Shown here: positions 1,566 through 17,550 of the stretch, one piece after another
Numbering within the stretch: the first letter of the stretch is position 1
Layout: each line of letters begins with the position of its first letter
Made by a program: the position numbers and the translations under genes
Source: Holophagales bacterium UBA5066
Lineage (GTDB): Bacteria > Acidobacteriota > Thermoanaerobaculia > UBA5066
Reading direction: 5' to 3'
DNA length: 50,677 nucleotides
Assembly (NCBI GenBank): GCA_002414905.1
Contig: DIAY01000022.1
Location: 1-50,677 of the forward strand
The notes under the pieces: generated by a model
Seen by the model: only the letters and a program-made list of their open reading frames with translations
Told to the model about the DNA's origin: nothing
Database searches by the model: none

Positions 1566-4500
1566 CTACGGCGCCAGGAGCCCCACCCCTTCCCTTACCG
1601 CCTTCTCCCGGAAGCCGGCCACGTCTTTCGCGAAAAAGGCGTCGAGATCGGCAAGATAGCTCGTCAGGCGCGCTTCGGCCTGGGCAAGCCTCTCGAGTTG
1701 CGTCGGACTGGGAGGCGCCCACGATGAGGCCACGTTTCCGGCGGCCGCCTGGAGATCCTGTGCCACGCGGTTGCGTGCGGGGATTCCCGCATTCTCAGGG
1801 GGGCTCCAGAGGAGGTTCTCCTTATCCGTCAGCACCCTCTTCAGCGCGGCTGCCTCCTTCGCGAAGGGCGTTTCGTTCGCCTTCCGGCGCTCGGCCGGAT
1901 CGCGCAGAGTCTCGCTTCTCCGCCGCAGCCTCTCCTCCACGGCCGCCACGTCGTCGCGCGTCCGGCGGATCCGGATCGCCGCCTCCGCCGCCTTCTCCTG
2001 CAACCCGCCCGCCCGCTCGATCGTCGCCCACCGCCTCACCCAGTCTGCCGGGGAGTTCTTCGACCGCGGGTCGGGAAGGACGCTCACCTGCGCGCGTGCC
2101 GTCGCGTCCCGGAACGCCAGCGTCACCGTGTAGTCCCCCGGAGGGACCTCGGGGCCGGCGGCCTGCCACTCCGGGAGGGGACCCGCATTGGGTGCACGCG
2201 GGAACCGCCGCCAGGCGTCGCGCCCGAGGTCCCACGCGACGCGGGTGACGCCCTGTCGCGCCGGCGCGTCGAAGACCCTCACGAGCGTCCCGGCCGCATC
2301 CGTCACGCGAATCGAAACCCGCGGCCGCGACGGGTCCGCTCCTTCCTCTCCGTCGCCACCACGAACACCCCTGTCCCGCCCCGGCGAGAGCGGCTCCTCC
2401 TCGCCTGCCGGAGGCAGGCCCGGCGCATTCAGAGAGAAAGTCAGAAGCGACCCGTACGGCCTGGATGTGCCCGCAAATTCGGCCGCGCCCGCTCCCGTCA
2501 CGCCGTCCTGGGCTGCCCGCCAGTACTGGCGCGCCGGGACCGGGGTGAAGAGGTGGAGAGGCGCGCCGAGCGTCTCCTCCGTCATCTCGCGAAAAGGCGT
2601 CAGGTCGTCAAGTATCCAGATCGCGCGGCCGTGCGTGGCGATGACGAGATCACCCTCCGTCGGGTGGATGGCCAGGTCCATCACCGACGCCGTCGGGATC
2701 GTCTTCTTCAGGTGCCGCCAGCCCGTCCCGCCGTCGAGCGAGACGAAGAGCCCCGTTTCCGTTCCCAGGAAGAGGAGTTCCTTCTTCACCGGATCCTGGA
2801 CGACGGCGAGCGCGTACCCCTTCACGGCGGGCGTCACGAGACTCTTCCACGTCCTGCCGTAGTCGTCCGTCCGGTAGACGTATGGCGCGAAATCGCCCCA
2901 GCGGTGGTTGTCGAGGACAGCGAACGCCGTGGCCGCGTCGTACCGCGACGGTTCGATCGCCGCCACGTGAGCGTTCTTCGGCGCGCCGGGTGGCAGCGCG
3001 TTCTCGACGGAGAGCCAGGTCCGGCCGCCGTCGCGGGTCACGTGGATCCGGCCGTCGTCCGATCCGGCCCAGATCGTCCCTTTCACCGCCGGGCTCGGCG
3101 CGATGGTGACGAGCGTCGTGTAGTTCTCGGCGGCCGTGACGTCGAGCGTCAGGCCGCCGCTCGCGCCCTGCTTCTGCCACGCCGGATTGTTCGTCGTCAG
3201 ATCCGGGCTCACCGTCTCCCACGTCTCGCCCCGGTCCCTGGAGCGGTGAACGTACTGGCTCCCGAGCCAGACGGTCGCCGGCCCGAACGGGTCGACCGCG
3301 AGCGCCGCGTTCCAGTTGAACCGCAGCTTCGTCCCCGCGGGCGCCTGGGGCCTGGCGTCACGGACCTCGCCCGTCCGGACGTCCCAGCGCATCAGGTTCC
3401 CTCCCTGGGAGAGGGAATAGCCACGCTCCGGGTCCTCGGGGTCGGGAAGGGTCTCGAACCCGTCCCCGCTGCCGACCCGCTTCCAGTGGTGCGCCTTCAC
3501 CCCGCCCCGCTGCCAGACCGACGACGGTCCCCGCCAGGAGTTGTTGTCCTGCAGGCCCCCGTAGACGTTGTACGGGATCTCGCCGTCGACGGCCACGTGG
3601 TAGTACTGCGCCAATGGCAGGGTCCCGACGAAGCGGAACGTGTCGCCCCGGTCGCGGCTCTCGTAGAGCCCGCCGTCGTTCCCGAGGAGCATCCGCCGCG
3701 GTTCCTTCGGGTCGATCCAGAGGGCGTGGTGATCCACATGGACGTGCTGGCGCCCCGTCCCGCGGACGTTCCCGAACGTCCGGCCGCCGTCCGTAGAGAC
3801 GCGCAGCTCGGTCGCGAGCGAGTAGACGCGGTTCGGCTGCTGGGGATCGACCCGGATATCTGCGTAATAGAAAGGACGCGGGTTGACCGAGGGGCCGTCG
3901 TTCACGACCTCGAAGCGGCGTCCGCCGTCTTCCGAGCGGAGGAGGACGTTTTTCTCCGCCTCGACGATGGCGTACACGACCTCCGGGTGTCGATCGCAGA
4001 AGGCGAGACCGATCCTGCCGAGCGTCCCCTTCGGAACCCCGTCCTTCTCGCCGAGCCTCGTCCAGCTCTCGCCTCCGTCCCACGTCACGTGGAGGCCCGA
4101 CCCGGGTCCTCCCGAGCGGAAGAAGTGCGGAGTCCGGCGGAAGTCCCACATCGCGGCCAGGAGGTGGTCGGGGTTGCCGGGATCGAGCGTCAGGTCGCCA
4201 CAGCCCGTCTTCTCGTCGACGTGGAGGACTTTCTTCCAGCTCTTCCCTCCGTCGTTCGTCCTGAAGACTCCTCGCTCCGCTCCGTCGCTCCAGGCGGGAC
4301 CGACCGCGCAGGCCCAGGCCGTCTGCGGGTCACGCGGGTGGAGGAGGATCCGGTGGATCCGCTCCGTCCTGGCGAGGCCGACGTTCGTCCACGTCTTCCC
4401 GCCATCGCGGGTCAGGTAGACGCCGTCGCCGTGAGAGATGCTGTTGCGCAAGTTCCCCTCGCCCGTGCCGACCCAGACGACATCGGGCGTCCTCGGATCG

Positions 4501-8746: not shown

Positions 8747-11050
8747 TTACTTCTTCAGTCCCGTCAGGCCCGCCCAGCGACGGTCGACCCCGGGAGCCGG
8801 CGGCGCCGGGCGCGGCGCGGGCATGGGCGGGGACGTTCTCGGGCCGGCGGGGCGCGGCGCAGGAGGGGCGGCCGGCTCGCCGAGCCGCATCGTCAGAGAG
8901 ATCCTCTGCCTGGGAAGGTCGACCGTGAGGACCTTCACCTGCACCCGGTCACCGGGACTCACCACCTCACTCGGGTCCTTCACGAAGCGCGTCGAGGAGA
9001 GCTGCGAGATGTGGACGAGGCCGTCCTGGTGGACACCGACGTCGACGAACGCCCCGAAGTTCGTGACGTTCGTGACGATGCCGGGACAGACCATTCCTTC
9101 CTTCAGGTCGGAGACCTGGTTCACGCCATCGAGGAACGAGAACGGTACGAAGCCCTCTCGCGGGTCGCGGCCCGGCTTCTCGAGCTCCTTGACGACGTCG
9201 TCGAAGGTGAAGGCCCCGAGAGTTTCCTTCAGCCCTTTCGACCCCTTCACGAGGGCCACGCCCGGCCCGACGAGATCGGCCACCTTCTTCCCGAGCCCGG
9301 CGGCGAACGTTTCGAGGGCTTCGTACCTCTCGGGATGGACTCCGGTGTTGTCGAGCGGGTTCTCACCGCCCGCGATGCGCAGGAACCCCGCCGCCTGCTC
9401 GAACGTCTTCTTCGAGAAGCGCGGCACCTCCAGCAGCTCGGGCCGCGCCGAAAAGAGCCCCTTCGTCTCGCGCCGCGCCACGATCGCCTTGCCGAGCGCC
9501 GGCCCGATTCCCGAGACGTGGGCCAGCAGGTGCGGCGAGGCGGTGTTCAGGTTCACGCCGACCTGGTTCACGGCCGAGTCGACGACGATGTCGAGCTTCT
9601 TCTTCAGCGCGTGGGGCGACACGTCGTGCTGGTACTGCCCGACGCCGATCGACTTCGGGTCGACCTTCACGAGCTCGGCGAGAGGGTCCTGGAGCCGCCG
9701 CGCGATGGAGATTGCCCCACGGATCGTCAGGTCGAGGTCGGGGAACTCCTCGCGGGCCGTATCGCTCGCGCTGTAGATCGACGCTCCCGACTCGTTCACG
9801 AGAACGACCGGCACGTCGAGCCCCGCCTCTCGCAGCGCCTCGCGAACGAACGCCTCCGCCTCCCGCCCGCCCGTCCCGTTCCCCACCGCCACGCAGCGGA
9901 TCGCGGCCGTCCGGACACTCTCCACGAGCGTCCGCCGCGCCCGTTCGCGCGACTCGTCCCCTTGAAGGTGGATCACCGTCGAGGCGACGTACTTCCCCGA
10001 ACCGTCGACGACGGCCAGCTTGCAGCCGGTCCGAAGCCCCGGGTCGACGCCGAGGACCGCCTTCGGCCCGAACGGCGCGGCGAGGAGGACCTTGCGGACG
10101 TTCTCCGCGAAAACGTGGATCGCCGCCTCGTCGGCCACGTCCTTCAGCGCCTTGTGGACCTCGGCCTCGATCGAGAGGAGGACGTGCGCCTTCAGCGCGA
10201 AGCGGGCGGCCTTCTTCAGGAACGGCTGCGCGGGCGTGGCCGCCCCGGCGCCCGCCGCCCGCTCGAATTCGGCGAGGAGCCGCTCCTCGAAGCCGGGATG
10301 CTTCGGAGCGTCGCCGAGCGAGAGCGTCAGCTCCTTCTCCAGCCAGCCGCGGCGCATCGCGAGGTAACGGTGTGACGCCTCCGGCTTCAGGAGGGAGGCG
10401 ACCGAATCGCGGAACTCGAAGTACATCTCGTACTTGCTCGCGGCCTTTGGCTCCTCCCCCTTCCCCGAGGAAAGGCCGCCCCGCTCGAACGCCTCGCGGC
10501 GGACGTGCTGCCGCAGCTCCTCGGTCTCCGAGAGCCTTTCGACGAGGATCTCGACGGCCCCCTGCAGCACCGCGGGAACCTCGGCGAAACCGGCCTCCGG
10601 ATTGAGGAAAGCCCCGGCCTTCGCCTCGGGCGCTTCGGACACCGCGCCGCCCTGGCCGACGTCCCAGAGCCAGTCGGCGAGGGGCTGAAGTCCGGCCTCG
10701 CGGGCGATCACGGCCTTCGTCTTCCGCTTCTTCTTGTACGGCAGATAGAGGTCCTCGAGCGTCGCGAGGTCGAAGGTCGCGAGGAGACGCGCCTTCAGCT
10801 CAGGGGTCAGCTTCCCCTGCGCTTCGATCTCGCCGGTGACGAACGTCTGCCGCTTGACGACCTCGTCCCACGTCTCTTTCGCGTCGAGAATGGCGAGGAC
10901 TGCGACCTCGTCGAGCCCCCCCGTAGCCTCTTTTCGGTAGCGTGCGATGAAGGGGACGGTGGCCCCCTCGGCGCCGAGAGCGAGGACGGCGGCGGCGGAA
11001 CGGGGAGGGATGCCGGGGTGTTTCTCTTTGAACCAGGTTTCGAAGTTCAC
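8747..11050 (-). CDS. tex: Tex-like transcription accessory protein (YqgF/HhH/S1 domains)
   Basis: 767 aa. N-terminal TVPFIARYRKEATGGLDE signature, a central RuvC-like region (LGVDPGLRTGCKLAVVD), and a C-terminal S1 domain (GMVCPGIVTNVTNFGAFVDVGVHQDGLVHISQL) followed by a Pro-rich tail. Confidence 0.9.
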   Translation of the reverse strand: MNFETWFKEKHPGIPPRSAAAVLALGAEGATVPFIARYRKEATGGLDEVAVLAILDAKETWDEVVKRQTFVTGEIEAQGKLTPELKARLLATFDLATLEDLYLPYKKKRKTKAVIAREAGLQPLADWLWDVGQGGAVSEAPEAKAGAFLNPEAGFAEVPAVLQGAVEILVERLSETEELRQHVRREAFERGGLSSGKGEEPKAASKYEMYFEFRDSVASLLKPEASHRYLAMRRGWLEKELTLSLGDAPKHPGFEERLLAEFERAAGAGAATPAQPFLKKAARFALKAHVLLSIEAEVHKALKDVADEAAIHVFAENVRKVLLAAPFGPKAVLGVDPGLRTGCKLAVVDGSGKYVASTVIHLQGDESRERARRTLVESVRTAAIRCVAVGNGTGGREAEAFVREALREAGLDVPVVLVNESGASIYSASDTAREEFPDLDLTIRGAISIARRLQDPLAELVKVDPKSIGVGQYQHDVSPHALKKKLDIVVDSAVNQVGVNLNTASPHLLAHVSGIGPALGKAIVARRETKGLFSARPELLEVPRFSKKTFEQAAGFLRIAGGENPLDNTGVHPERYEALETFAAGLGKKVADLVGPGVALVKGSKGLKETLGAFTFDDVVKELEKPGRDPREGFVPFSFLDGVNQVSDLKEGMVCPGIVTNVTNFGAFVDVGVHQDGLVHISQLSSTRFVKDPSEVVSPGDRVQVKVLTVDLPRQRISLTMRLGEPAAPPAPRPAGPRTSPPMPAPRPAPPAPGVDRRWAGLTGLKK

Positions 11051-11141
11051 GCCGGATGATCGCAGAGCCCGGGGGAACCGGGGGAGCCGTCACGCGAGGT
11101 CTCGCCAGCGACGATCGACGTCGGCCTCTCTACCGCACGGG

Positions 11142-14100
11142 TCACGGGATCCGGGCGCCGGCCCGGACGATCTCGAGGATCCGCGCGCCATAGCGCTCCA
11201 TGCGCGAGGGGCCGATACCGCCGATGGCGGCGAGCTCGGACTCGGAACGAGGCTTTCGCGCCGCGATGTCGAGGAGCGTCAGGTCGGTCAGGACCCGGAA
11301 AGCCGGCTGGCGGTGCTTCTTCGCCTCCTCGAGGCGCCAGCGGCGGAGCGCGTCGACGAGCGCAGGGAGCGCTCCCGGCGCCTCGGGCCCGGCCTTCGGC
11401 TTCCCCTTGGCCCGGCTTCCCCGGTGAGCGGCCGCCGCCGCTGGCTTCGGAAGGGCGGACCTCTTCGGGAGAGCGGCCTTCCCGCGCTTCTTTCTCGCGG
11501 CGGTGGTCGGCGGAACGGCCACGCGAGCATCGATCGCCGCTCCGGGCCGGCTCCCTTCGCCCGTGAGGAAGACGCGGCGGAAGCGGATGATCCGCCCGTC
11601 CTTCTCGAACTCGTCGTCCTCGATCCGTGCGAGGGTCGCGCGCACGAGGCCGCCGAGGAGCTCTTCGAACTCCCTGCGGTCCACGGCCGGAAACTGCCTC
11701 GCGACCTCCGTGTGAAGTTGCCCCGTCGTCTGGCCGTCCCGTGAGCGGAGGAGCTCGAGGGCACGCCGGAGCGCGGCCTCCTCCATCGGGCTCGTCCGGC
11801 GTGTCTTCGTGGCGATTCCTTTGCCGGGAGCGCAGACGTCGCACTGTCCGCAAGGGGCGCCGTCGTCCTCCTCGTCGCCGAAATGCCTCACCAGCTGAAG
11901 CATCCGGCAGATCGGTCCGTCGGCGAAGCGGCGCATCAGGACGAGCTGCGTCTTGCGATGCTCGCGCTGCTCTTCGTAGGCCCGCTGCCAGCCCTCCTTC
12001 CCGCGCGACACGTCGCCCTCGGGAGTGACGACGGCGCCGCCGAACGTCCAGAGCTTCTCGAGCGCCTTCTGGAAAACGTCCGGGTCGAGCGAGACTGCGG
12101 CCTGGAGGCCCTCCGTCGGGATCGGGTCATCCTTCAGGACGCGAAACAGCTCCTCGACGACGGACGTTTCGGGGTAGTCGCGCCCGAGGAAGAACTCGTG
12201 CGTTCGGATGTCGCCGTACGACTGCAGGAGAACGGCCCGCGCCGGGAGACCGTCCCGTCCCGCACGGCCGATTTCCTGGTAGTACCCCTCCACGCTCCCC
12301 GGCAGTCCCGTGTGGATCACCGTCCTCACGTTTGCCTTGTCGATCCCCATCCCGAACGCGATCGTCGCGACGATGACGTCCGCCCGCCCCTCGAGAAACC
12401 GGGCCTGCACGTCGTCGCGGTCCCTCGCGGTCATGCCCGCGTGGTAGGCCACCGCGCGCAGGTCGCGCTTCAGCTCCCCCGCCAGCGACGTCGCCTCCTT
12501 CCGCGTCGGCGTGTAGACGATGGCGGGACGCCGGGCCTCGTCGGCGAGGATCGCCTTCACCAGCTCGCCCCGCCGGCTGGGCGGCACCTCGGCCACCTCC
12601 ACCGCGAGGTTCGTGCGGCGGAATCCGTGGATGAAGCGTCCTGCGTTCACGAGCCCGAGCTGGGCGCGGACGTCGTCCTGCACCCGCGGCGTCGCCGTCG
12701 CCGTCAGGGCGATGACGGGCGCCGGGCGCAGGAGCGGGAGCCTCGACCCGAGGAGCCGGTAGTCCGGCCTGAAATCGTGCCCCCAGTGCGAGATGCAGTG
12801 GGCCTCGTCGACGGCGACGAGGGCCGGGGTTCTCTTCGCGAGCATCTCCGGGAAGCCCGGTACCGACAGCCGCTCGGGGGCGATGAAGAGGAAGTCGAGC
12901 CTGCCCGCGAGGTAGTCGAGGCAGACCTGACGTGACGCCGACCGGTCGCGCCCCGAGTGGATCCGCTCGGCCGAGAGTCCGAGCGCCTGCATCTTCGCCA
13001 CCTGGTCTTCCATGAGCGCGATGAGGGGCGAGACGACGAGCGTCGTCCCTGCACGGGCAAGACCCGGCAGCTGGTAGCAGAGCGACTTGCCTGCCCCCGT
13101 CGGCATGACGAGCAGGGCGTCGCGCCCCTCGACGACGGCCCGGCAGACCGCCTCCTGAAAGGGGCGAAACGCGTCGTGTCCGAAGACCCCCTTCAGCAGC
13201 TCACCGAGCCGGTCCGCGGGTACCGGCACCCGCGCCGCCCGCATCGGCCGCACCCCGCCGGCACCCGCCGAAGCGGAAAGAGGCCTGGCACCGGCTGCCG
13301 TGGCGGCTCCCGTGCCAGACGAGCGATCGCCACCTACGGCGCCTGTGGCGCCAGGCGTGCGACGACCTGCGTTGCCAGGCGTGCGATCGGCGGCCACGGT
13401 GTCCGCGGCTCCATTGCCAGCGGCTCCAGTGCCAGGCGTGCAATCGTGTATTACGTCCGTAATACACGATTGCACGCCTGGCACCAGGACGGGGGTGTCA
13501 ACTGCTCCATGAGCGCGTGTGGTGCTCCGGAAGGCTTCGCCCACGACCTCCCTCACGTATTCCTCGATCCCGTTCATGAAGGTCTCGAGGCGTCCGTCGC
13601 CCTTCTGCAGGCGGGCGAGCCCGGCTTCCCATCGCCCCGTCAGAGCCGGGCTCTTCACCGAGTCGGGGACGAGAGCGATGAGGCGGATTCCCTTGTCGGT
13701 CGCCGAGAAGGCCTTCCCGTTCCGCTCCGCGTAGCCGCGCGTCAGGAGCGTCTCGAGAATCTCCGCTCTCGTGGCAGGAGTCCCGAGACCGTTCTCCTTC
13801 ATCGCGTCGGCGAGCTCCTTCTCGTCGAGCGTCCGTCCCGCGGTCTCCATTGCGGTCAGAAGCGTCGCGTCGGTGAAGCGCTTCGGAGGACGCGTCTTCC
13901 TTTCGACGGCCGCCACGCCGGCCACCGTCTTCCGCTGCCCCCGGGCAAGCCCCGGCGGCAGCTCGGCCTCCTCGCGCTCGTCGTCCTTCTTCCGTGAGAC
14001 CGGCTCGGGCTCCACTGCCTTCCACCCGGCCGCGACGACCATCGTCCCGCTCGAGCGGAAGCGGTCGACGACGCCGGCGGAGCGGATCGGTCCGGGCGTG

Positions 14101-15431
14101 CGCTCCTCCGGCACTCCCTCGGGCGCTGCAGTGCCCGTTCCGCGCCGGACCGCCGTCACGACCGCCGTCGTCGCGGCCACGTGCTCGTCGTGCCAGGCCG
14201 CGAGGAGCCGCCGAACCACGAGTTCGTAGAGCGCCCGTTCCTCCCGGTCGAGATCCCGCGGTGCGGTGGGCGTCGGGATGATGGCGTGGTGATCGCTCAC
14301 CTTCGCGTCATCCACGAAGCGTCCGCCAAGCGGCGTCTCGCCGGTCCCCGTCGCGAAGAACTTTCCCCACTCCGGCCCGAGGGCTTGCACCACTCTCGGC
14401 AGCGTCGCAGCCACGTCACGCGAGAGGTGACGGCTGTCGGTCCGCGGATAGGTGATTGCCTTCCTGCCCTCGTAGAGGCGCTGCGCCACCTCGAGCGTTT
14501 TCTTCGCGCTCCATCCGAGGAGCCGGTTCGCGTGGCGCTGGAGCTCGGTCAGGTCGAACAGGAGCGGAGGCGGAAGCCGTCGCGTCTTCGACTCGACCGA
14601 CTCGACCGCCGCCTCGCCCGAGGTCACGCGCGCGACGATCGCGGCGGCGGCCGCGCCATCCACCGGAAGACGCTTCCCGCCGTCTTCCTTCTTCGCCGGG
14701 TCGAACCACGTCCCGCCGTATCGCCCCGTCTCTCCCGTAAACGTCGCGATGACCTCGAGGTACTCCTCGGGGACGAAGTCGCGGATCGCCAGCTCCCGCT
14801 CGACGAGCATCGCGAGCGTCGGCGTCTGGACGCGCCCCACCGAGAGCTTCTCGTCCGTGGCGAGCGTGAAGGCGCGGGAGAAGTTCATTCCGACGAGCCA
14901 GTCGGCCCGGCTCCTCCCGCGTGCCGCGTCGGCGAGCCGGTCGTAGTCCTTCGCCGGCCTGAGGCGCGCCAGGCCGTCGCGGATCGCCTCGGGCGTCAGC
15001 GACGAGATCCAGAGCCGCTTCACCGGCTTCGTGCAGCCGGCCGCCTCGTAGAGCTGCCGGAAGATCAGCTCACCCTCCCGCCCCGCGTCCGTCGCGCAGA
15101 CGACATCCGTCACCCGCGGGTCGGCGAGCACCTTCCGTACCGCCTCGAATTGCTCCTTCACGCGTTCCTGGACGACGAGGGGCCACACCTGCGGCAGGAT
15201 CGGCAGCTGGTCGCGCCGCCAGCTCTGCCACTCCGGGCGCATCTGCCCCGGCTCGGCCAGCGCGACGAGGTGCCCGATGGCCCAGGTCACGACGTGCCCC
15301 GGTCCGCTCAGGCAGCCCGTTCCCCTCCGGGTCGCTCCGAGCACCGCCGCGATGTCGCGCGCGACGGAAGGCTTCTCGGCGACGACAGCGACGAAGGCGG
15401 GCTCAGGCATGCGCGATGCAGTATCCGACAC
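11142..15431 (-). CDS. Fusion protein: DNA topoisomerase III (type IA) N-terminal module plus RecQ-family helicase with HRDC C-terminal module
   Basis: Single uninterrupted 1429-codon frame. Topo III motifs: AEKPSVARDIA, TWAIGHL, DAGREGE, GRVQTPTL, active-site ITYPRTDSRHL, HHAIIPT. RecQ motifs: FRPFQ, PTGAGKSLCYQLP, DEAHCISHWGHDFRPDY, ALTATAT, FGMGIDK, QEIGRAGRDG, and the Cys cluster CRM..CGQCDVC. The C-terminal segment is HRDC-like (FRVLTDLTLLDIAARKP...IGGIGPSRMERYG). An in-frame internal ATG at 13244 precedes the RecQ module. Confidence 0.85.
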   Translation of the reverse strand: MSDTASRMPEPAFVAVVAEKPSVARDIAAVLGATRRGTGCLSGPGHVVTWAIGHLVALAEPGQMRPEWQSWRRDQLPILPQVWPLVVQERVKEQFEAVRKVLADPRVTDVVCATDAGREGELIFRQLYEAAGCTKPVKRLWISSLTPEAIRDGLARLRPAKDYDRLADAARGRSRADWLVGMNFSRAFTLATDEKLSVGRVQTPTLAMLVERELAIRDFVPEEYLEVIATFTGETGRYGGTWFDPAKKEDGGKRLPVDGAAAAAIVARVTSGEAAVESVESKTRRLPPPLLFDLTELQRHANRLLGWSAKKTLEVAQRLYEGRKAITYPRTDSRHLSRDVAATLPRVVQALGPEWGKFFATGTGETPLGGRFVDDAKVSDHHAIIPTPTAPRDLDREERALYELVVRRLLAAWHDEHVAATTAVVTAVRRGTGTAAPEGVPEERTPGPIRSAGVVDRFRSSGTMVVAAGWKAVEPEPVSRKKDDEREEAELPPGLARGQRKTVAGVAAVERKTRPPKRFTDATLLTAMETAGRTLDEKELADAMKENGLGTPATRAEILETLLTRGYAERNGKAFSATDKGIRLIALVPDSVKSPALTGRWEAGLARLQKGDGRLETFMNGIEEYVREVVGEAFRSTTRAHGAVDTPVLVPGVQSCITDVIHDCTPGTGAAGNGAADTVAADRTPGNAGRRTPGATGAVGGDRSSGTGAATAAGARPLSASAGAGGVRPMRAARVPVPADRLGELLKGVFGHDAFRPFQEAVCRAVVEGRDALLVMPTGAGKSLCYQLPGLARAGTTLVVSPLIALMEDQVAKMQALGLSAERIHSGRDRSASRQVCLDYLAGRLDFLFIAPERLSVPGFPEMLAKRTPALVAVDEAHCISHWGHDFRPDYRLLGSRLPLLRPAPVIALTATATPRVQDDVRAQLGLVNAGRFIHGFRRTNLAVEVAEVPPSRRGELVKAILADEARRPAIVYTPTRKEATSLAGELKRDLRAVAYHAGMTARDRDDVQARFLEGRADVIVATIAFGMGIDKANVRTVIHTGLPGSVEGYYQEIGRAGRDGLPARAVLLQSYGDIRTHEFFLGRDYPETSVVEELFRVLKDDPIPTEGLQAAVSLDPDVFQKALEKLWTFGGAVVTPEGDVSRGKEGWQRAYEEQREHRKTQLVLMRRFADGPICRMLQLVRHFGDEEDDGAPCGQCDVCAPGKGIATKTRRTSPMEEAALRRALELLRSRDGQTTGQLHTEVARQFPAVDRREFEELLGGLVRATLARIEDDEFEKDGRIIRFRRVFLTGEGSRPGAAIDARVAVPPTTAARKKRGKAALPKRSALPKPAAAAAHRGSRAKGKPKAGPEAPGALPALVDALRRWRLEEAKKHRQPAFRVLTDLTLLDIAARKPRSESELAAIGGIGPSRMERYGARILEIVRAGARIP
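13312..13484. repeat. REP/MITE-like palindromic repeat inside the TopoIII-RecQ linker
   Basis: Perfect 26-bp inverted repeat GTGCCAGGCGTGCAATCGTGTATTAC (13429-13454) / GTAATACACGATTGCACGCCTGGCAC (13459-13484) with a 4-nt loop. It is preceded by four degenerate direct half-sites (GTGCCAGACGAGCG, GCGCCAGGCGTGCGA, TTGCCAGGCGTGCGA, TTGCCAGCGGCTCC). The same family occurs at 15467-15577. Confidence 0.85.
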
Positions 15432-15466
15432 GCGCGGCAGGAAGAGTCACGGGGCAGGCGGAGAGA

Positions 15467-15604
15467 GGAGCCGTGCCGGACGAGCCGTGCCAGGCGTGCA
15501 ACCGTGTATTGCGGAGGAGCCGTGCCAAGCGTGCAACCGTGTATTGTGTTCAACAATACACGGTTGCACGCCTGGCACGATCTTCAGATGGCACGATCTT
15601 CAGA
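15467..15604. repeat. Second copy of the same palindromic repeat family, plus a 16-bp tandem duplication
   Basis: Two direct units GCCGTGCCA(G/A)GCGTGCAACCGTGTATTG (15484-15511 and 15519-15546), then an inverted unit CAATACACGGTTGCACGCCTGGCAC (15553-15577). This forms an approximately 25-bp hairpin. It is followed by TGGCACGATCTTCAGA twice (15573-15588 and 15589-15604); the second copy contains the trpB2-like stop codon. Confidence 0.85.
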
Positions 15605-16967
15605 CCTTCACGTCCGGCAGGTGCTTCATCGCCTCTTCCACCGCGTGGTCGGGGTATTCGAAATCCTCGAGGAGGCCGTGGTGGTAGCTCTGGTAGGCGG
15701 TCATGTCGAAGTGACCGTGGCCGGAGAGGTTGAAGGCGATGACCTTCTTCTCACCCGTCTCGCGGCACTTCAGCGCCTCGTCTATCGCGGCGCGGATGGC
15801 GTGAGCCGACTCGGGCGCCGGGATGATCCCCTCGGCCTTCGAGAACGTCACGGCCGCTTCGAACGTCTCCATCTGGCGCGCCGTCCTCGCTTCGATGTGG
15901 CCGCTCGCCACGAGCGCGCTCACCGTGGGGGCCATCCCGTGATAGCGCAGCCCGCCCGCATGGATTCCCGGCGGCATGAACGTGTGCCCGAGCGTGTACA
16001 TCTTCACGATCGGCGCCATCGCGGCCGTGTCGCCGTAGTCGAACGTGTAGCGCCCCTTCGTCAGCGTGGGGCACGAGGCCGGCTCCACAGCCACGACGCG
16101 GGTCGTCTTCCCCTCGGTCAGGTTGCGGTGAATGAACGGAAACGTGAAGCCCGCGAAGTTCGACCCGCCCCCCGCACAGGCGATGACGACGTCGGGGTAC
16201 TCGCCCGCCATCTCCATCTGCTCGAGCGCCTCGAGGCCGATGACCGTCTGGTGCATCATCACGTGCCCCAGGACCGAGCCGAGGCTGTACTTCTTCTTCC
16301 CGCCGCTCGTGGCGGCTGTCTCCACCGCCTCGGAGATGGCGACGCCGAGAGAGCCGGGCGAGTTTTCGTCCTGCTCGAGCATCTGCCTTCCGAAACGCGT
16401 CCTCTCGGACGGGCTCGCGAAGACGTTGGCGCCGTAGTTCTCCATGATGATCCGGCGGTACGGCTTCTGGTGGTAGGAGACGCGCACCATGAAGACCTCG
16501 AGGTCGAGGTCGAAGAAGCTGCACGCCATCGCCAGCGCCGTGCCCCACTGCCCCGCGCCCGTCTCGGTCGTCAGCGCCTTCGTTCCGGCCTCCTTGTTGT
16601 AGAAGGCCTGCGGCACGGCGGTGTTGGCCTTGTGCGAGCCGACGGGGCTGACGCTCTCGTTCTTGAAGTAGATGTGCGCGGGCGTGTCGAGCGCCTTCTC
16701 CAGCCGCAACGCCCGGATCATCGGCGTCGGGCGCCAGAGTCGATAGATCTCCCGGACGGGCTCGGGCACCTCGACCCAGCGCTCCGGTGTGACCTCCTGC
16801 ATCACGATGTTCATCGGGAAGAGGACGGAGAGAAAGTCCGGCGTGACCGGTTCCATCGTTACCGGATGAAGGACTGGAGCCGGCGGCGACGGCAGGTCGG
16901 CGTTCACGTTGTACCAGGCCTTCGGAATCCGGGACTCGTCGAGCAGGAACCGGCTGCGGTCGGACAT
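15600..16967 (-). CDS. TrpB-like PLP-dependent enzyme (tryptophan synthase beta, TrpB2 type)
   Basis: Start set to ATG 16967 (MSDRSRFLLDESRIPKAWYN), preceded by GGAGGAG. The track ORF extends to 17270, but that extension is Ser/Pro/Arg junk. Motifs: PLP-lysine region SVSPVGSHKANTA, TETGAGQWGTALA, GGGSNFAG. The N-terminal extension and approximately 455-aa size fit the TrpB2 subfamily. Confidence 0.9.
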   Translation of the reverse strand: MSDRSRFLLDESRIPKAWYNVNADLPSPPAPVLHPVTMEPVTPDFLSVLFPMNIVMQEVTPERWVEVPEPVREIYRLWRPTPMIRALRLEKALDTPAHIYFKNESVSPVGSHKANTAVPQAFYNKEAGTKALTTETGAGQWGTALAMACSFFDLDLEVFMVRVSYHQKPYRRIIMENYGANVFASPSERTRFGRQMLEQDENSPGSLGVAISEAVETAATSGGKKKYSLGSVLGHVMMHQTVIGLEALEQMEMAGEYPDVVIACAGGGSNFAGFTFPFIHRNLTEGKTTRVVAVEPASCPTLTKGRYTFDYGDTAAMAPIVKMYTLGHTFMPPGIHAGGLRYHGMAPTVSALVASGHIEARTARQMETFEAAVTFSKAEGIIPAPESAHAIRAAIDEALKCRETGEKKVIAFNLSGHGHFDMTAYQSYHHGLLEDFEYPDHAVEEAMKHLPDVKV

Positions 16968-17118
16968 CGTCTCCTCCAGACGGCGGATTCTGCGCCTGCG
17001 GCAGACGCCGCGCTCCTCCTTCGCCGCGAAGGGATCGTTCAGGAACGCACGGGTCAGCGGGACGGCAGCCCCTGCTCGTCGAGCCCCCGGGGCGGGCCCG
17101 GGGTCCTCCTGCCGCGCC

Positions 17119-17550
17119 TCAGGTGGGCAGGTGGAGGTCGAGGATCTCGGGCGGGACGAGAGCCCCGATGAGCGGCGCAAAGAGTCCGATGAGGAACAAG
17201 ACGAGACCGGCGCCGGCGGCGGCGGCGAGGCCGAGCAAGGTCGGGATCCTCGCGAGGCGGACCCGTTCATAGTTGTTCACGCGGGCGACGATGCTCTCGG
17301 CGACGACGGGCACATCCGTCGTCTTCTGCTTGAGGACGAGCCTGCCCTCCTCCGCCGCTTTCAGGATCGGCTCGTTCGCGACGAAGACCTCGACGCGGTC
17401 GGAGACGGCGGCGAGGGTGGGTGAGACAGCCGTGGCCGTCCAGTTGGCGTCAGACGGCTGCTCCCAAAGCTGCAGCCCGCCGTAGCAGGCGCCGCCGCAG
17501 AGGAGCAGCCCGACGAGGATGGCAAACGAGCGAAAGTGATTACGTTTCAC
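17119..17550 (-). CDS. Small hypothetical membrane protein (N- and C-terminal TM segments)
   Basis: Start set to GTG 17550, preceded by GGGAGG with a 6-nt spacer. 143 aa: VKRNHFRSFAILVGLLLCGGACYGG ... a soluble stretch of about 90 aa ... IPTLLGLAAAAGAGLVLFLIGLFAPLIGALV. No recognisable family. Confidence 0.55.
   Translation of the reverse strand: MKRNHFRSFAILVGLLLCGGACYGGLQLWEQPSDANWTATAVSPTLAAVSDRVEVFVANEPILKAAEEGRLVLKQKTTDVPVVAESIVARVNNYERVRLARIPTLLGLAAAAGAGLVLFLIGLFAPLIGALVPPEILDLHLPT

Follow-up and report, generated by a model that had tools for sequence, protein, structure and literature searches.

A REPIN-like palindrome carried in-frame in the inter-domain linker of an already fused topoisomerase III-RecQ gene in Holophagales bacteria

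The stretch of DNA analysed here, referred to as the window, comprises positions 1 to 50,677 of contig DIAY01000022.1 of Holophagales bacterium UBA5066 (assembly GCA_002414905.1), which has a base composition of about 70% G+C and carries a gene in which a topoisomerase III (TopoIII) and a RecQ helicase are joined in a single open reading frame (ORF). The corresponding database protein (P0001; compared proteins and loci are labelled P and L) begins MPEPAF at an ATG at 15410, giving 1422 amino acids (aa). Six Pfam domains occupy the one polypeptide in the order Toprim, Topoisom_bac, DEAD, Helicase_C, RecQ_Zn_bind and HRDC. Topoisom_bac is matched with an E-value of 8.5e-107, the NCBIfam model 'DNA topoisomerase 3' scores 650 bits, and the NCBIfam model recQ_fam ('RecQ family helicase') scores 387 bits on the C-terminal half. 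The subject of this report is a short palindrome that lies in the linker between the two enzymes and resembles the REPINs, hairpin-forming doublets of repetitive extragenic palindromic (REP) sequences. The principal features are as follows.

11142..15431, minus strand: TopoIII-RecQ fusion gene, a single ORF of 1429 aa from the first GTG
13575..15389, minus strand: topoisomerase III part, with Pfam Toprim (aa 15-144) and Topoisom_bac (aa 163-619)
11166..13166, minus strand: RecQ part, with Pfam DEAD (aa 756-918), Helicase_C, RecQ_Zn_bind and HRDC, the last reaching aa 1422
13257..13511, minus strand: inter-domain linker (aa 641-725), predicted to lack structure; its length and sequence are hypervariable between orthologues
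13429..13484: REPIN-like perfect palindrome of 56 nt, encoding the 19 residues VPGVQSCITDVIHDCTPGT (aa 650-668)

Each arm of the palindrome (13429-13455 and 13458-13484) has 27 nt, and the two are 100% complementary across a 2-nt centre; an earlier note on this DNA, made from the sequence alone, had described the same feature as a perfect inverted repeat of 26 bp. The palindrome interrupts the fusion ORF with neither a stop codon nor a frameshift, conserved parts of the protein lie on both sides of it, and the same arrangement is found in nine orthologous loci. The segment is thus presumably translated, judging from the conservation of the reading frame across these nine loci. As RNA, the region is predicted to fold into a 29-bp stem at the hairpin, with a z-score of -5.4 over 221 nt. 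A 24-mer from the element, GTGCCAGGCGTGCAAYCGTGTATT, matches the window five times (0.00 expected), and two of these matches constitute the linker hairpin. The other three (15487-15579) lie upstream of the gene, where the earlier note had correctly placed members of the same family: two direct copies and one inverted copy.

The segment of the protein into which the palindrome is read appears to be a disordered tether. In an AlphaFold2 model of aa 501-900, built from an alignment of 35 homologues, residues 641-725 (fragment residues 141-225) have a predicted confidence score (pLDDT) below 50 and lack secondary structure, with confidently folded parts on either side. The hairpin-encoded residues fall inside this low-pLDDT stretch, with one Pfam domain ending before it at aa 619 and the next starting at aa 756. 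Among orthologues carrying the hairpin, the conserved motifs that bound the linker are 76-138 aa apart, and the sequences flanking the hairpin are unalignable. A metal-binding role for the Cys and His residues of the encoded peptide was considered and dropped, because these residues are not conserved (VKPCI..IHGF variants).

The remainder of the linker also contains material resembling the arms of the palindrome.

13312-13329, plus strand: degenerate arm copy, read on the coding strand as DRSSGT
13346-13360 (match at 13348), plus strand: degenerate arm copy, read on the coding strand as RRTPGA
13372-13389, plus strand: degenerate arm copy, read on the coding strand as DRTPGN
13405-13431: fourth, weaker arm copy, assigned to family D1

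Four degenerate half-sites had been proposed in the earlier note, and three of them are clear (13312, 13348 and 13372). These three comprise the outer 13-18 nt of the arm, with one or two mismatches to GTGCCAGGCGTGC, and their coding strand resembles the right arm. Degenerate matches to GTGCCAGGCGTGC number nine in the window (2.7 expected), a count reached in 0 of 100 shuffled sequences. The half-sites between 13312 and 13431 most plausibly arose some time ago as local duplications of an arm end together with its flank, and have since decayed.

The linker is also distinguished by its codon composition. G+C content at third codon positions (GC3) falls to 0.57-0.63 in the residue windows spanning 631-720, compared with 0.8-1.0 elsewhere, and over the same residue windows the content at second positions (GC2) rises to 0.8-0.9. 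The shift had been noticed previously, and the codons cited for it (cca caa att gta ata gat cct act gga aat) are correct in the sequence. The hairpin codons alone have a GC3 of 0.53. Outside the hairpin the linker has a GC3 of 0.67, a low value that we attribute to the decayed half-site duplications. A non-coding-like composition of the REP-derived linker codons is therefore supported.

The palindrome belongs to a dispersed family. An exact-match scan for a 21-nt core, covering one genome per species (species-representative metagenome-assembled genomes, MAGs), located it in 35 loci, nearly all in Holophagales (Acidobacteriota) MAGs and a few in other MAGs; four of the Holophagales MAGs have about 5-10 such exact matches apiece. 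The motif is thus not unique to its two sites in the window, and a count of its occurrences, a check that the earlier note had proposed, finds it mostly at intergenic-looking places. A typical copy consists of GGTGCCAGGCGTGCAAYCGTGTATTGT, about 5 nt (N5), and an inverted copy; nearly every copy is a hairpin, usually of 56-57 nt, with 57 nt the length of most dispersed copies. The outer arm ends read (C/G)GTGCCAGG or GGGGTCAGG, a loose tail of the form ..YCGGGG often extends beyond the arms, and several dispersed copies lie directly after a stop codon.

Copies were called genic or intergenic with a GC3-based check, which serves as a rough guide only and by which most of the dispersed sites look intergenic. 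The check misses the window's own linker copy, because the 60 codons flanking it are themselves low in GC3, and it flags as genic L011 (beside a poly-G run), L023 and L027 (the flank of a transposase gene); at L023 no convincing ORF was found. The convincingly genic copies are linker copies of the TopoIII-RecQ gene in other MAGs, namely L015, L021 (the same place as L116) and, presumably, L005. These data support the derivation of the linker segment from a dispersed REP/REPIN-type palindrome that looks intergenic at most of its sites. Loci L014, L025 and L031, which have exact hairpin copies, are on contigs assigned to MAGs of Fibrobacteria, Gammaproteobacteria and Thermoanaerobaculia, and this could reflect mis-binning or transfer.

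At two loci, inverted arms about 1 kb apart (6547+/7542- in L028 and 2307+/3351- in L033) lie on either side of an ORF of 315-321 aa. L027, from a third MAG, has another copy of the ORF, about 90% identical to that in L028; an arm precedes this copy, and its other side lies outside the available sequence. The arms at these transposase genes are the same 26-nt arms.

L028, 6562-7509: transposase ORF
L033, 2408-3373: transposase ORF
L027, 76-1041: transposase ORF

All three ORFs contain HVH and YIHRNP motifs, and Pfam Y1_Tnp (PF01797) is matched at E 2e-15 (L028) and 4e-16 (L033). In the L028 and L033 proteins, the IS200-like Y1 domain is followed by a C-terminal helix-turn-helix resembling DnaA_C. 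At about 315 aa, the transposase is longer than the 146-position NCBIfam model of the REP-associated tyrosine transposases (RAYTs). The placement of inverted arms around a Y1 gene is diagnostic of the REPIN/RAYT arrangement, or of the variant reported from Acidobacteria in which long terminal inverted repeats (TIRs) flank such genes (TIR/TIRYT).

The relation of the element to the fusion can be judged from the homologues, all of which, like the comparative data as a whole, come from metagenome assemblies. The earlier note had proposed that topB and recQ became fused when a REP-like or miniature inverted-repeat element replaced the stop codon and intergenic gap between them and became the linker, and there are observations that such a history would accommodate: the linker holds REP-derived DNA of non-coding-like composition, the linker of another lineage (P0015/16) carries a different palindrome, and an older element, since decayed, could in principle have made the first bridge. 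However, the best 120 homologues listed, from Holophagales, Thermoanaerobaculia and other Acidobacteriota and reaching down to 54% identity, are all fusions of 1300-1500 aa with both TopoIII and RecQ domains. Among 38 homologues read, the hairpin peptide is limited to the closest clade (P0001-P0014, 74-86% identical) and the L015 orthologue. On a neighbour-joining distance tree from which the linker was left out, the hairpin clade is monophyletic, and 15 of its 16 members have the hairpin. The sole member without it (P0012, at L123) is nested inside the clade and therefore most likely lost it.

Homologues lacking the element are fused as well. The sister lineages P0017-P0028, read as protein, show no such palindrome, and L036 is likewise without the insert; a search of more distant fusion linkers read as DNA found no palindrome with arms of at least 10 nt in 15 of 16. 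The orthologue comparison that the earlier note had suggested therefore came out in part as predicted, in that the element is absent from relatives such as L123, but the stop codon expected there is not present, and the element-free L123 linker has a GC3 of 0.90. No relatives with separate genes around this element were seen. From the still-fused relatives without a palindrome and the 120 fused homologues, it follows that the element entered a pre-existing linker: the TopoIII-RecQ fusion predates the element, which did not create it. We accordingly regard a fusion made by the element as highly improbable. The origin of the fusion itself is not explained by the finding of the element. A 400-aa linker-segment scan of metagenomes returned mostly distant fusions or lone RecQ genes, and its sole match resembling the close clade (L046) is cut by a contig end. 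In the literature no relevant description of a bacterial TopoIII-RecQ fusion was found, which does not show that the fusion is undescribed.

Palindromes of other kinds occur in linkers outside the hairpin clade. In the P0015 linker (L124, 2164-2469), and in P0016, another palindromic family pairs GGGGTCAGGTCCCAATTTCCCACTATAGC with GCCAAAGTAGAAAACGAAGACCTGACCCC, with three left arms in tandem, two right arms and a second full copy after them; with the L120 variant of the present element this palindrome shares solely the GGGGTCAGG end. The P0079 linker (L125, 11977-12215) contains GC-rich palindromes, for example CCCTCCTCTCCCGG..CCGGGAGAGGAGGG with 14-nt arms; no 13-mer of this linker recurs in its 24-kb locus, so that a dispersed family is not demonstrated. 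Recurring peptides such as PLSRP..SLTGRGGEG and GPGGEGPGGG are common to fusion linkers at about 54-57% identity (P0029, P0030, P0039, P0057, P0066) and appear to be translated from a further repeat family.

A more mundane account of the in-frame continuity, a collapsed repeat or other mis-assembly, was also weighed. The sources are metagenome assemblies, palindromes can confuse assemblers, and L011 provides an example of a poly-G run beside an element copy. This run (about 3360-3455 of the long-read MAG contig JADJVF010000001.1) probably arose at the hairpin through faulty assembly or base calling. At the fusion gene, the same in-frame architecture is present in nine independent assemblies from different projects, each read as DNA, so assembly error, which the earlier note had named as a possible cause, can be set aside with a chance that is practically negligible.

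The nine orthologous linker copies read as DNA are without exception exactly 56 nt long and share one reading frame, with perfect arms of 18-29 nt. They are not identical in sequence. Lineage variants of the arm include GCAATCG, GAAACCG, GGCATGAACCCG and GAAATCG, as well as TCAGG versus CCAGG and several apical variants, and each arm variant is mirrored in the opposite arm of the same hairpin. In the alignment of the linker hairpins, 96.7% of cells are paired, and both sides have changed in 9 of 27 pairs. The covariation score is 0.288, compared with 0.111 in shuffled alignments (0 of 500 reach the observed value) and at most 0.076 with slid partners, the shuffle controls not being probabilities. 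The paired changes alter the encoded peptide (Q-S..D-C to K-P..G-F), and hence point to a constraint on the nucleic acid. The hairpin evolves more slowly than the fourfold-degenerate sites in the adjacent domains, with a mean pairwise identity of 0.81 compared with 0.64; for the 24-nt flanks of the hairpin the value is 0.38. GC3 of the hairpin is 0.47-0.58 in all lineages, compared with 0.88-0.99 in the domains.

A pattern of this kind raises the possibility that the host has co-opted the hairpin, either as a site of translational pausing, as an mRNA stability or processing site, or as a site for the encoded RecQ and TopoIII activities. That 15 of 16 orthologues retain the hairpin within a linker that otherwise turns over agrees with this proposal, as do the maintenance of perfect arms by compensatory change at the peptide's expense, the long and very stable RNA stem, and the REP copies or relics that the fusion gene has at its 5′ end, both in the window and among several of the orthologues. 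A stable RNA stem could conceivably act as a pause or processing site. However, equivalent conservation is seen outside the gene. An intergenic copy downstream of a DJ-1/PfpI gene occupies an orthologous site in L116, L119, L120 and L121 (it has decayed in L122) and likewise has matched arms with lineage-specific variant pairs. The conservation therefore looks like a property of the element family, is probably not special to the fusion gene, and needs no gene-specific role to account for it. Moreover, the P0012 lineage most likely lost the hairpin and kept an intact gene. Neither an intrinsic (U-tract) terminator nor a sigma-70 promoter was found, and there was no Rfam family match, the sub-threshold matches of microRNA precursors to the upstream hairpin being generic to long stems. 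An internal start for RecQ downstream of the hairpin (Met at about aa 729) was rejected because this Met is absent in orthologues. We consider co-option by the host unlikely. The fuller version, in which a mobile palindrome has been domesticated as an intragenic regulator that causes ribosome pausing, directs mRNA cleavage or stabilisation, or is sensed or processed by the fusion enzyme, in concert with the REP copies at the 5′ end, is quite doubtful.

Alternatively, the linker might be a hot spot for insertion, with hairpins acquired independently or replaced by re-insertion in each lineage. A different palindromic family does occupy the same linker in P0015/16, GC-rich palindromes are present in the Thermoanaerobaculia-type linker, and arm variants are patchily distributed on the tree, being partly common to other copies in the same genome. 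Set against these points, the nine linker copies for which DNA was read share one frame and a length of exactly 56 nt, compared with 57 nt for most of the dispersed copies; the presence of the hairpin is monophyletic with one nested loss; and in L116 the linker copy (GAAACCG) is unlike the other copies seen in that genome (GCAATCG). Repeated acquisition is therefore very unlikely, in our view.

Taken together, we favour a history, to which we assign a probability of roughly 0.72, in which a REPIN-like element was inserted into the tether of an already fused gene and has since been inherited vertically, its hairpin kept by forces that act family-wide. The 56-bp palindrome would be a non-autonomous REPIN-like element composed of two TIRs of about 26 nt from an IS200-like Y1 (RAYT-like) unit and a short spacer. 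One copy would have entered the disordered tether of the TopoIII-RecQ gene in an ancestor of the Holophagales clade. Such a tether may tolerate almost any peptide rich in Gly, Ala, Thr and Pro, and the insert could for that reason be read through in-frame and passed on vertically. What is conserved would then be the nucleic acid and not the peptide, with the 56-nt length, the frame and the complementarity of the arms preserved by paired changes. The upkeep of the hairpin might reflect selection on it as a substrate of the transposase, or templated correction from arm to arm or from copy to copy. Templated repair between the arms of quasi-palindromes is an established source of mutation. The linker hairpin is thus best read as a tolerated, vertically inherited passenger.

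Several points weigh against this interpretation. Retention of the hairpin in 15 of 16 members, within so fast-changing a linker, may reflect a host function. The C/A arm variant (GCAATCG versus GAAATCG) is patchy on the protein tree and partly common to other copies of the same genome, a distribution that requires compensatory changes to have occurred repeatedly or other copies to have served as donors for conversion; it suggests occasional conversion between element copies, and strict in-situ descent of the linker copy is not proven. The tree itself is a simple one. The assignment of the element to a known class is imperfect as well, in that the outer ends lack the GTAG (or CGTC) tetranucleotide of classic REPs, the L028 transposase scores 72.9 bits (E 2.4e-20) against the NCBIfam RAYT equivalog NF047646 and so falls under the 80-bit cut-off, and no transposase gene was found in the window. 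Finally, the copy numbers are underestimates owing to exact matching and the use of one genome per species.

Element-derived sequence in the window extends to the region immediately upstream of the fusion gene, between its start and the stop of a gene for an enzyme of the PALP family. The features of this cluster and the neighbouring genes are listed below.

15465..15604: same-family cluster in the gap from the PALP-enzyme gene (stop at 15600) to the start of the fusion gene
15465-15491: partial head copies
15486-15511 and 15521-15547: direct arm copies
15553-15579: inverted arm copy
15573-15604: 16-nt perfect tandem duplication, TGGCACGATCTTCAGA twice
15600-17270: PALP-enzyme gene, upstream of the fusion gene
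8747-11050: Tex-like gene, downstream of the fusion gene

The cluster has an RNA fold z-score of -6.8 and includes a 35-nt duplication at 15477-15546. Each TGGCACGATCTTCAGA repeat consists of the last 6-7 nt of an element arm and 9-10 nt of flank. Duplications of an arm end with its flank are also seen in orthologous linkers (IHGFTPGTESG twice in P0002, VPHGS twice in P0006, SVPGA/SVPGV in P0013) and at the dispersed copies L019, L023 and L030-L032. A check for target-site duplications found no consistent direct repeat beside the hairpins; the duplication of arm end plus flank recurs instead. Such local duplication is a recurrent by-product in this element family, and may be a footprint of the cutting or copying of the element. 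Several orthologous fusion genes have one degenerate arm copy, AATACACCATTCGAGACCTGACCCC (giving EIHDSGPDP or a similar peptide), either at the 5′ end or within the N-terminal extension of the annotated gene (about 100-170 in L015 and about 2410-2470 in both L119 and L120), parallel to the window cluster at 15465-15604.

In most orthologous loci (L116, L117, L119-L123), the fusion gene is followed by the DJ-1/PfpI gene, beyond which L116, L120 and L121 (and L122, in decayed form) have a hairpin element and then the Tex gene. In the window, just 91 nt (11051-11141) separate the stop of the fusion gene from the start of the Tex gene, and no element lies there; a search of the whole window for a DJ-1 homologue found none. 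The lack of both the DJ-1 gene and the element between the fusion and Tex genes suggests a deletion.

If the favoured history is correct, the locus would offer a clean, datable case of a transposase-associated palindrome that resides inside a protein-coding gene and is inherited clade-wide, and in which selection or templated correction acts on the DNA or RNA hairpin and not on the encoded peptide. It would also indicate that disordered inter-domain tethers can be safe harbours for 'extragenic' repeats. For annotation, the case serves as a warning that a repeat-like stretch of low GC3 in a long ORF need not mean a fusion, a frameshift or an assembly error.

In-frame palindromic repeats have precedents. 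Rickettsia palindromic elements (RPEs) are short mobile palindromes found both in intergenic DNA and in-frame within genes for functional proteins, to which they add a peptide (PMC10969869, PMC3733652), and the linker hairpin resembles them in this respect. RPEs, however, are about 100-150 bp long, occupy many genes per genome, have no dedicated transposase (CGTC-type, PMC3733652) and belong to AT-rich, reduced genomes, whereas a single 56-nt hairpin in a single gene is found here, in a free-living lineage of 70% G+C with an associated Y1 transposase gene. Another parallel is provided by the GTAG/CGTC REPs (Di Nocera et al. 2013), whose units or dimers inside ORFs encode 20-30 residues (PMC3733652), often in genes of replication and repair such as those for UvrD/Rep helicase, Pol I and RecBCD (PMC3733652). 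The linker hairpin is similarly a REP dimer in a DNA-repair gene, with 19 residues encoded, but it has arms of 26-27 nt and no tags, in contrast to stems of 5-13 bp with GTAG/CGTC tags. RecQ and topoisomerase are not mentioned in the text or available supplements of PMC3733652, and would extend the excess of REPs previously observed inside genes for replication and repair. Clade-wide retention with covariation is a feature of the present case for which no counterpart was noted in that source.

Compensatory change between the two sides of the hairpin is described as a common feature of REPINs (Bertels and Rainey 2011; PMC3116915), and REPIN populations are reportedly inherited vertically and very long-lived (bioRxiv 10.1101/2021.07.10.451892). 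With the REPIN-RAYT systems of Pseudomonas and E. coli, the Holophagales element shares dispersed extragenic inverted doublets, a long hairpin, and the same sequence flanking a Y1 gene. It differs in its Acidobacteriota host, in the number of exact copies detected per MAG (about 5-10), in the apparent translation of one copy, and in a transposase of about 315 aa that has a DnaA_C-like helix-turn-helix and lies under the RAYT equivalog cut-off. In the TIRYT type, of which a sharply defined group has been reported from Acidobacteria (PMC3733652), a Y1 transposase gene lies between long terminal inverted repeats, and the repeats form moderately abundant families. The element described here resembles this type in having long inverted repeats instead of GTAG REPs, and its transposase may be related to that group. 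In-frame palindromic repeats are thus already known from Rickettsia RPEs and GTAG/CGTC REPs, and what the TopoIII-RecQ linker adds to them is a perfect palindrome maintained clade-wide in coding DNA.

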